From: Escherichia phage Pisces
Length of the DNA: 39,497 nucleotides
Sequence record: MK903277.1
Reading direction: 5' to 3' (one strand)
In this document: one piece after another, positions 11,741-13,444 of the stretch
Layout: each line of letters begins with the position of its first letter
How positions within the stretch are numbered: the first letter of the stretch is position 1
The notes under the pieces: model-generated
What the model saw: only the letters and a program-made list of their open reading frames with translations
The model's database searches: none
What the model was told of the DNA's origin: nothing
Translations under genes and position numbers: made by a program

Positions 11741-13444
11741 ATGTCATATGAAGACCAAGAGCAGGACGATAGCGTCTTCCTCTACCACACCGAGTGTCCA
11801 GACTGCGGGTCTTCGGATGCCAATGGTGTCTACTCAGACGGGCATATGTACTGCTTTGCGTGTGACCCGTCAGTCGCTTGGAAGAAGGGCGATATGGAAT
11901 TGACCGAAGGTTACACACCTTCAGGAGGTAAGAAGCAAGTGAGCAACCTGTTAACGTGGGGTGAGAACTCAGGACGTTATGTCCCACTCCCGGCTCGTGG
12001 ACTATCGGCTGACATCTGCAAGAAGTACAGCTACTGGGTAGGCATGATGCAGGGCAAGATGGTCCAGATTGCGGACTACTACGACAGGTCCGGGACCAAG
12101 GTAGGACAGAAGGTCCGAGACGCTGAGAAGAACTTCACGGCTATCGGTAGCGTCAAGAATGACTTACTGTTCGGCTCTCAGCTCTGGTCGGGAGGCAAGA
12201 AGATTGTCATTACCGAAGGAGAGATTGACTGTCTGTCAGTCGCTCAGGTTCAGGAGGGTAAGTACCCAGTGGTCTCCCTCCCGTTAGGCGCGAAGTCTGC
12301 GAAGAAGACACTGGCAGCGAACCTTGAGTACCTCGACCAGTTCGAAGAGATTATCCTGATGTTCGACATGGATGAGCCGGGACGTGAGGCTGTAGAGCAA
12401 GCTGCTCCGGTCCTCCCCGCTGGTAAAGTCAAGGTCGCATTCATCAACGGGTACAAAGACGCTAACGCTGCACTTCAGGCCAAGGACTTCAGGGCGATTC
12501 AGGATGCAATCTGGAACGCAGTACCTTTCGTCCCGGCTGGAGTTGTGAGCGCCAAGTCTCTGAAGGACAGGACCCGCGAGGCAATGCTGAAGGCTGAGAC
12601 TGAAGGTCTCCTCTTCTCGTCCTGTACAACACTCAACGCGATGACCCTCGGTGCGCGAGCTGGTGAGCTTATCATGGTGACTTCAGGGTCTGGCATGGGT
12701 AAGTCTACCTTCGTGCGTCAGCTCCTCTTAGAGTGGGGCAGAATCGGTAAGCGTGTGGGTATGGCGATGCTGGAGGAAGCAGTCGAAGAGACGGTTCAGG
12801 ACCTCATGGGTCTGGACAATAACGTCAGGCTGCGTCAGTGTGCCGACCTGAAGGAAGCAATCCTGAAGGATGGACGGTTCGACGAATGGTATGACAAGCT
12901 GTTCAATGACGATAAGTTCCACCTGTACGATTCATTCGCGGAGTCAGAAGAAGACACGCTGTTCGCTAAGCTGGCCTACATGGTTGACGGTCTGGACTGC
13001 GATGTCATACTGCTGGACCACATCTCAATCGTGGTGTCTGGCATGGAAGATAACTCAGATGAGCGTAAGACCATCGACCGCATCATGACCCGTCTCAAGA
13101 AGTTTGCGAAGACTAAGGGTGTGGTTGTCGTGGTCATCTGCCACCTGAAGAACCCGGAGAAAGGTAAGTCGCATGAAGAAGGTCGCCCGGTTAGCATTAC
13201 TGACCTGCGTGGGTCTGGCGCTTTACGTCAGCTTTCAGACACCATCATTGCCTTGGAGCGAAATCAGCAAGGTGATACTCCTAACGTTGTCCAGCTTCGT
13301 TTGCTTAAGTGTCGCTTTACTGGCGATACGGGCATTGCGGGACATCTTGAATACAACAAGCTCACTGGCTGGCTCGAACCGATTAGCGCACCTAGCGGAA
13401 GCGGAGAGGAAGATAGCGGCTCGTGGGAAAACCAAGACTTCTAA
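11741..13444 (+). CDS. DNA primase/helicase (gene 4)
   Basis: 567 aa; N-terminal Zn-ribbon CPDCGS...CFAC; TOPRIM block [10 protein letters not shown]; Walker A GSGMGKST; C-terminal acidic tail ending DF; collinear with T7 gp4A. Confidence 0.95.

Follow-up and report, generated by a model that had tools for sequence, protein, structure and literature searches.

Organization of the Gene 4 Locus

The window analyzed here is the whole 39,497-nucleotide stretch of DNA of Escherichia phage Pisces (MK903277.1). Gene 4 of the window encodes a protein with Pfam matches to Helic-prim_T7_N (residues 78–136), Toprim and DnaB_C, i.e., a T7-type primase/helicase. About 1.8 kb around the site under study showed 96% nucleotide identity to Escherichia phage IMM-002 (genus Kayfunavirus) and 88–94% identity to Cronobacter phages Dev2 and GW1, Citrobacter phage SH4, and other members of Kayfunavirus. 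By these sequence matches, the phage is a member of Kayfunavirus, the K1F-like relatives of T7. Two records named after other hosts, "Enterococcus phage EFA-1" (MT350292, UNVERIFIED_ORG) and "Staphylococcus phage MBBL139" (OR786095), are also Kayfunavirus genomes, with a gene 4 that is 91–95% identical to that of Pisces, and the host assignments of both are probably wrong.

The features of the locus are collected in Table 1. The promoter motif found just upstream of gene 4 is 20 nt long and occurs in 12 copies (3260–3279, 6795–6814, 8470–8489, 9386–9405, 11669–11688, 13614–13633, 17672–17691, 20492–20511, 21457–21476, 25905–25924, 33192–33211, and 38900–38919), which evidently form the phage RNA polymerase promoter set of the genome. 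Tandem direct repeats of CCTCAAGTCATCA with a period of 13 were observed near the left end (202–281) and resemble the arrays adjoining the terminal repeats of the T7 group. Between the amidase gene and gene 4, the window contains small open reading frames (ORFs) and the promoter only, with no HNH endonuclease gene, whereas in phage SH5 (KU687351, 1–112; table in PMC4925675) such a gene (T7 gp3.8-like) lies directly upstream and overlaps the start of gene 4.

Two ORFs on the + strand overlap gene 4 in the +1 frame. A 51-codon ORF (11748–11903) begins 7 nt past the ATG of gene 4 and 13 nt from the AAGGAG at 11730–11735, ends at the TGA at 11901–11903, and is open (49–62 codons) in all 21 Kayfunavirus relatives. 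Its location matches that of gene 4.1 in T7, where the 4.1 stop and the 4B ATG overlap; the ORF may be due to chance, since stops are sparse in the +1 frame (19 over the gene, with up to 97 codons open in a row). The other, a 98-aa ORF (13173–13469), overlaps the 3′ end of gene 4 and corresponds to gp4.2 as annotated in IMM-002, SH4, T7, and T3; its ATG ranked 4th of 78 in the initiation model described below, which fits a real overlapping gene.

Table 1. Features of the gene 4 locus, with predicted initiation scores (kcal/mol) and ranks among the 78 ATG, GTG, and TTG codons of the gene
Feature	Position	Strand	Basis	Score (rank)
Phage RNA polymerase promoter CTAAACTATCACCTTAGGGA, just 5′ of gene 4	11669..11688	+	One of a 12-copy repeat family, consensus CTAAACTATCACTATAGGGA	
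Shine–Dalgarno AAGGAG of the full-length (4A-type) start	11730..11735	+	Sequence; initiation model for ATG 11741	−4.1 (2/78)
Gene 4, full-length primase/helicase, 4A-type, 567 aa	11741..13444	+	ORF and Pfam domains	
Zinc ribbon, codons Cys19/Cys22/Cys38/Cys41	11795..11863	+	Cysteines invariant in alignment with T7 (Cys17/20/36/39) and T3	
Earlier candidate start: AAGAAGGG, CGAT, ATG 11894 (Met52)	11882..11896	+	Initiation model	+4.9 (21/78; 11th of 31 in-frame)
Internal Shine–Dalgarno GGAGGT in codons Gly62–Gly63, homologous to the T7 4B ribosome-binding site	11924..11929	+	Sequence match, conservation	
Predicted 4B-type product, GTG 11939 (Val67, read as fMet) to gene 4 stop, 501 aa, without zinc ribbon	11939..13444	+	Best-scoring start, conservation	−5.8 (1/78)

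A Candidate Internal Start in the Linker of Gene 4

Alignment of the T7 4B region, TCAGGAGGTAAACCAATG, with the corresponding region of the window, TCAGGAGGTAAGAAGCAAGTG, brought the codons TCA GGA GGT AAA CCA ATG of T7 against TCA GGA GGT AAG AAG CAA GTG of the window. Since both read TCA GGA GGT, the Shine–Dalgarno sequence of T7 4B is present unchanged in the window, and with these Ser-Gly-Gly codons in register the site preceding GTG 11939 is positionally homologous to the T7 Met64 site. When T7 PSGGKPMTYNVWNFGESNGRY was aligned with the window linker, the Met64 column fell on Gln66, one codon before Val67. The Val67 column coincides exactly with the start methionine of another clade (L026–L033), which reads GGDK-MSNLL, the window having VSNLL in place of MSNLL.

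GTG 11939 is located 9 nt after GGAGGT and 45 nt downstream of ATG 11894; it is in frame, past Cys41 and ahead of the Helic-prim_T7_N match. The GGAGGU pairs with the anti-Shine–Dalgarno sequence at −11.1 kcal/mol and thus constitutes a strong Shine–Dalgarno sequence. Internal initiation at GTG 11939 is therefore proposed to yield a second gene 4 product devoid of the zinc ribbon, a reading of the sequence to which a probability of about 0.65 is assigned.

Predicted Initiation Strength

Every ATG, GTG, and TTG codon in all three frames of gene 4 (n = 78) was scored with a simplified model of the RBS-Calculator type, our own reduction of the published thermodynamic scheme without the calibration of the original tool. 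The model adds up anti-Shine–Dalgarno hybridization, a term for the start codon, and penalties for spacing and for unfolding the local mRNA, using ViennaRNA energies. The control sites behaved sensibly, with scores of −5.6 kcal/mol for T7 4B, −1.2 kcal/mol for T3 4B, and −5.4 kcal/mol for the Val66 GTG of K1F. GTG 11939 and the full-length start took the first two ranks (Table 1). Over five folding windows, Val67 surpassed Met52 by 7–11 kcal/mol, and the predicted strength of Met52 was ∼100-fold below that of GTG 11939. Two features count against GTG 11939: GUG initiates less well than AUG, and a spacing of 9 nt exceeds the optimum.

Conservation Within Kayfunavirus

In a set of 21 distinct Kayfunavirus gene 4 sequences, the codons TCA (61), GGA (62), AAG (65), CAA (66), and GTG (67) were invariant, giving the pattern TCA GGA GGN ... 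AAG CAA GTG; in the same genes, GGA makes up 21% of the Gly codons, CAA 27% of the Gln codons, and GTG ∼27% of the Val codons. The Shine–Dalgarno sequence and the start codon are thus conserved as nucleotides among the relatives. Sliding scans placed codons 61–67 third lowest in synonymous diversity among 457 windows and codons 61–76 lowest among 451, a ranking that rests on few independent changes because the set splits into two main subclades, and that recombination, which could also lower local synonymous diversity, may affect. Four further GenBank genomes (PRF-SP2, EFA-1, LET1, and SH5) gave the same picture, with GGA and GTG kept and the codons upstream of Met52 varying.

Other stretches of low synonymous diversity were found at 12461–12538, 12662–12703, and 12893–12937 (codons ∼241–266, 308–321, and 385–399, respectively). 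The second covers the Walker A motif, and the other two have no obvious explanation; the T7 internal promoter phi4c sits roughly at the place of the third, where no copy of the promoter family occurs in the window.

The best-surviving alternative to internal initiation is that only the full-length protein is made, the 4B product having been lost when Met became Val, and that GGAGG persists as a relic, as a Gly-Gly linker requirement, or as a Shine–Dalgarno-like translational pause site at the domain boundary. The short form is reportedly dispensable in T7, so its loss in one lineage would be tolerable. A single CDS is annotated over the stretch in 47 of 49 closely matching GenBank/RefSeq records, and the Kayfunavirus literature provided no experimental evidence of a second product: no gp4 protein, ribosome-profiling, or N-terminal data were found for any member, and proteomics of relatives detected structural proteins only (PMC4925675). 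A relic, however, should decay, and GGA, CAA, and GTG are invariant at their synonymous sites across the genus while the flanking codons vary. The GGAGGT-GTG site is, moreover, the strongest predicted initiation site of the gene. On this balance, loss of the short form is considered unlikely.

Conservation Across T7 Relatives

Three IMG/VR scans yielded 147 distinct gp4 genes, among which 103 showed at least 60% identity to the window protein; the linkers were surveyed in a fixed window of 48 codons. In 100 of the 103 genes, the linker connecting the zinc ribbon with the RNA-polymerase subdomain (RPD) contained GGAGG, followed at 3–9 nt by an in-frame start, which was ATG in 74 and GTG in 26. 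The remaining three lacked the motif altogether, which agrees with the full-length-only alternative insofar as the motif can be lost, and the more distant gp4 genes (≤58% identity) were mostly without it. Elsewhere in gp4 genes, a motif-density test gave 0.16 GGAGG per 120 nt, and an in-frame start at 4–10 nt followed 12 of the 187 non-linker sites.

The GTG-start lineages comprise Kayfunavirus, the group of Yersinia phage vB_YenP_AP10, and Morganella phage MP2. Valine at the start position is always encoded by GTG, the only Val codon able to initiate, and the agreement of three separate lineages on this codon argues against loss of the short form. One clade spells GGAGG through Gly-Glu-Gly (CGGGGAGGGAAGCAAGATG) and not Gly-Gly; its retention with different residues points to a constraint on the RNA and not on the peptide, which again speaks against a product confined to full length. 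The annotated T3 4B start and the Klebsiella (Przondovirus-type) clade share the 9-nt spacing of the window. That almost every enterobacterial relative of T7 preserves the nucleotides of the internal ribosome-binding site, with either ATG or GTG as the start, argues for selection in favor of the zinc-finger-less form.

A tentative extension is that several Studiervirinae lineages (Kayfunavirus, the AP10 group, and MP2) independently exchanged AUG for GUG, keeping GGAGG at a spacing of 6 or 9 nt, and that the exchange may adjust the proportion of subunits with and without the zinc finger in the primase/helicase hexamer and hence how often priming occurs. In that case, selection would act on the role of the short form throughout the subfamily, and natural variants could be compared to study it.

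The Upstream ATG at Codon 52

The initial annotation had called two gene 4 products plausible, with the shorter one starting at ATG 11894 as the counterpart of the internal 4B start of T7. Its description of the site was accurate: ATG 11894–11896 is in-frame codon 52 as read from the ORF, AAGAAGGG (11882–11889) and CGAT stand before it, and Met52 lies downstream of the zinc ribbon, 11 codons past the last cysteine, Cys41, and hence between the zinc-binding domain and the RNA-polymerase subdomain. A 516-aa protein initiated there, with AAGAAGGG as the Shine–Dalgarno sequence, would also be without the zinc ribbon, and "helicase-only" is fair shorthand for the short product. In favor of this start, the codon is present in all 21 Kayfunavirus genes, AUG is intrinsically better than GUG, the partial anti-Shine–Dalgarno match (−5.3 kcal/mol) stands at an acceptable spacing, and Citrobacter phage SH4 annotates the equivalent start as gp21B.

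The equivalence with T7 Met64, however, is ruled out on two counts: in the alignment, Met52 pairs with T7 Lys50, which precedes Met64 by 14 codons, and when clades were compared, no counterpart of Met52 was found outside Kayfunavirus. The anti-Shine–Dalgarno match is interrupted and weak, and the low rank of the codon (Table 1) holds across folding windows; the purine run before it is at chance level, because the site ranks only 21st of 78 in the initiation model. A methionine would be expected by chance in a linker of ∼36 residues with p ∼0.7, the protein being ∼3% Met, and its conservation says little because the entire linker peptide is invariant in the genus. The codons before Met52 vary synonymously among relatives (AAG GGC GAT, AAA GGC GAC, AAA GGG GAC, and AAA GGA GAC), and this variation at codons 49–51 shifts or destroys the match, so that the Shine–Dalgarno sequence is not conserved. 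In K1F-type relatives, which have the AAA GGA GAC form, only 2 nt separate the end of the best match, AAGGAG, from the ATG, too short a distance. Codons 46–57 show synonymous diversity above the gene average (rank 378–436 of 457 windows), and the annotated "B" starts disagree, as the SH5 record and the published table use the Met102-equivalent.

Initiation of the short form at Met52 is thus regarded as quite improbable, and ATG 11894 most likely encodes an internal methionine with no special role, or at most acts as a minor start. The observation behind the initial annotation was real but at chance level, and its interpretation was right in kind and probably wrong in place: two gene 4 products are supported by homology and strong comparative evidence, and the start codon is probably GTG 11939 instead.

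Proposed Mechanism

Under internal initiation at GTG 11939, the gene 4 mRNA would give rise to two co-linear proteins, as in T7. The first would be the 567-aa primase/helicase from ATG 11741. For the second, ribosomes would bind the internal GGAGGU and start at the GUG 9 nt downstream, within the flexible linker that joins the zinc ribbon to the RNA-polymerase subdomain, producing a 501-aa short form without the zinc-binding domain. As the same domain would be removed at the same place as in T7, the short form is expected to have the same properties: by analogy with the T7 56-kDa protein, it would be incorporated into hexamers and be fully active as a helicase but would be unable to make template-directed primers. 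The analysis shows the anatomy of the sequence, its homology, its conservation as nucleotides, and its predicted initiation strength; from these we infer that the short protein is most likely made and would function in this manner.

The map of the promoter-family repeat places no phage promoter inside gene 4, the next copy being at 13614–13633; the short product would consequently require translation to initiate internally on the same mRNA. On this ground, transcription of the short form from its own promoter, as from T7 phi4c, was rejected; translational coupling from the +1-frame ORF was rejected as that ORF ends 36 nt before GTG 11939, and TTG 11900 (Leu54), which has AGGAG 8 nt upstream in K1F-type relatives, has no such match in the window and scores +11.3 kcal/mol. 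The overlap of the 4.1-type stop with the 4B start in T7 and T3 was not taken as evidence for coupling, since an ATGA at the start site produces it automatically.

Existing Annotations

Among the 49 closely matching GenBank/RefSeq records, SH4 alone (two records) carries a second CDS over 11860–11990. The second CDS of SH5 is placed further downstream, at the Met102-equivalent (SH5 record; PMC4925675), and K1F and IMM-002 are annotated with a single gene 4. No database record was found with GTG as the start of the short form. The short form of K1F-like phages is hence either unannotated or placed at inconsistent ATGs, the conserved GGAGG-N9-GTG having been overlooked, and the present analysis corrects the inconsistent "B form" annotations in SH4 and SH5. 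The alternation of ATG and GTG at a conserved internal ribosome-binding site adds a modest comparative point.

Comparison with Known Systems

The SH4 gp21B and SH5 gp22B annotations are the nearest by taxonomy, as both phages belong to Kayfunavirus and both entries describe a gene 4 "B form." They are annotations by analogy, marked "No experimental evidence," and are mutually inconsistent (Met52-equivalent in SH4, Met102-equivalent in SH5); neither starts at the GGAGG-linked GTG, unlike the product predicted here.

The 4B of T3 and other Teetrevirus phages, annotated as "in-frame internal initiation," resembles the window in having GGAGGC, 9 nt, and a start codon. It differs in that the T3 start is ATG and in that the linker peptides are unrelated except for Gly-Gly. 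Citrobacter phages SH1 and SH2 list the same internal site as T3 (PMC4925675).

Another close parallel is T7 itself, in which gene 4 gives a 63-kDa primase/helicase and a 56-kDa helicase, the latter (4B) starting at Met64 (PMC1616965). The two forms are produced in equal amounts (PMC2910064); the short one assembles into hexamers and has full helicase activity with no template-directed primer synthesis (PMC1616965; PMC2910064), its in vivo role having been stated as unknown (PMC2910064). The T7 and window genes are orthologous and share the order of zinc ribbon, linker, RNA-polymerase subdomain with Toprim, and DnaB-type helicase. In T7, the internal Shine–Dalgarno sequence, TCAGGAGGT, is likewise encoded by Ser-Gly-Gly in the linker, and the in-frame start likewise lies just ahead of the RNA-polymerase subdomain. 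The window differs in using GTG in place of ATG, one codon further downstream and at a spacing of 9 nt instead of 6 nt, and in having no counterpart of the internal promoter phi4c within gene 4; the short product is experimentally known in T7, whereas in the window it is predicted from sequence. The GTG 11939 case is an ordinary member of the known T7 mechanism, and it is not surprising, since the production of two co-linear replication proteins from one gene is textbook T7 biology.
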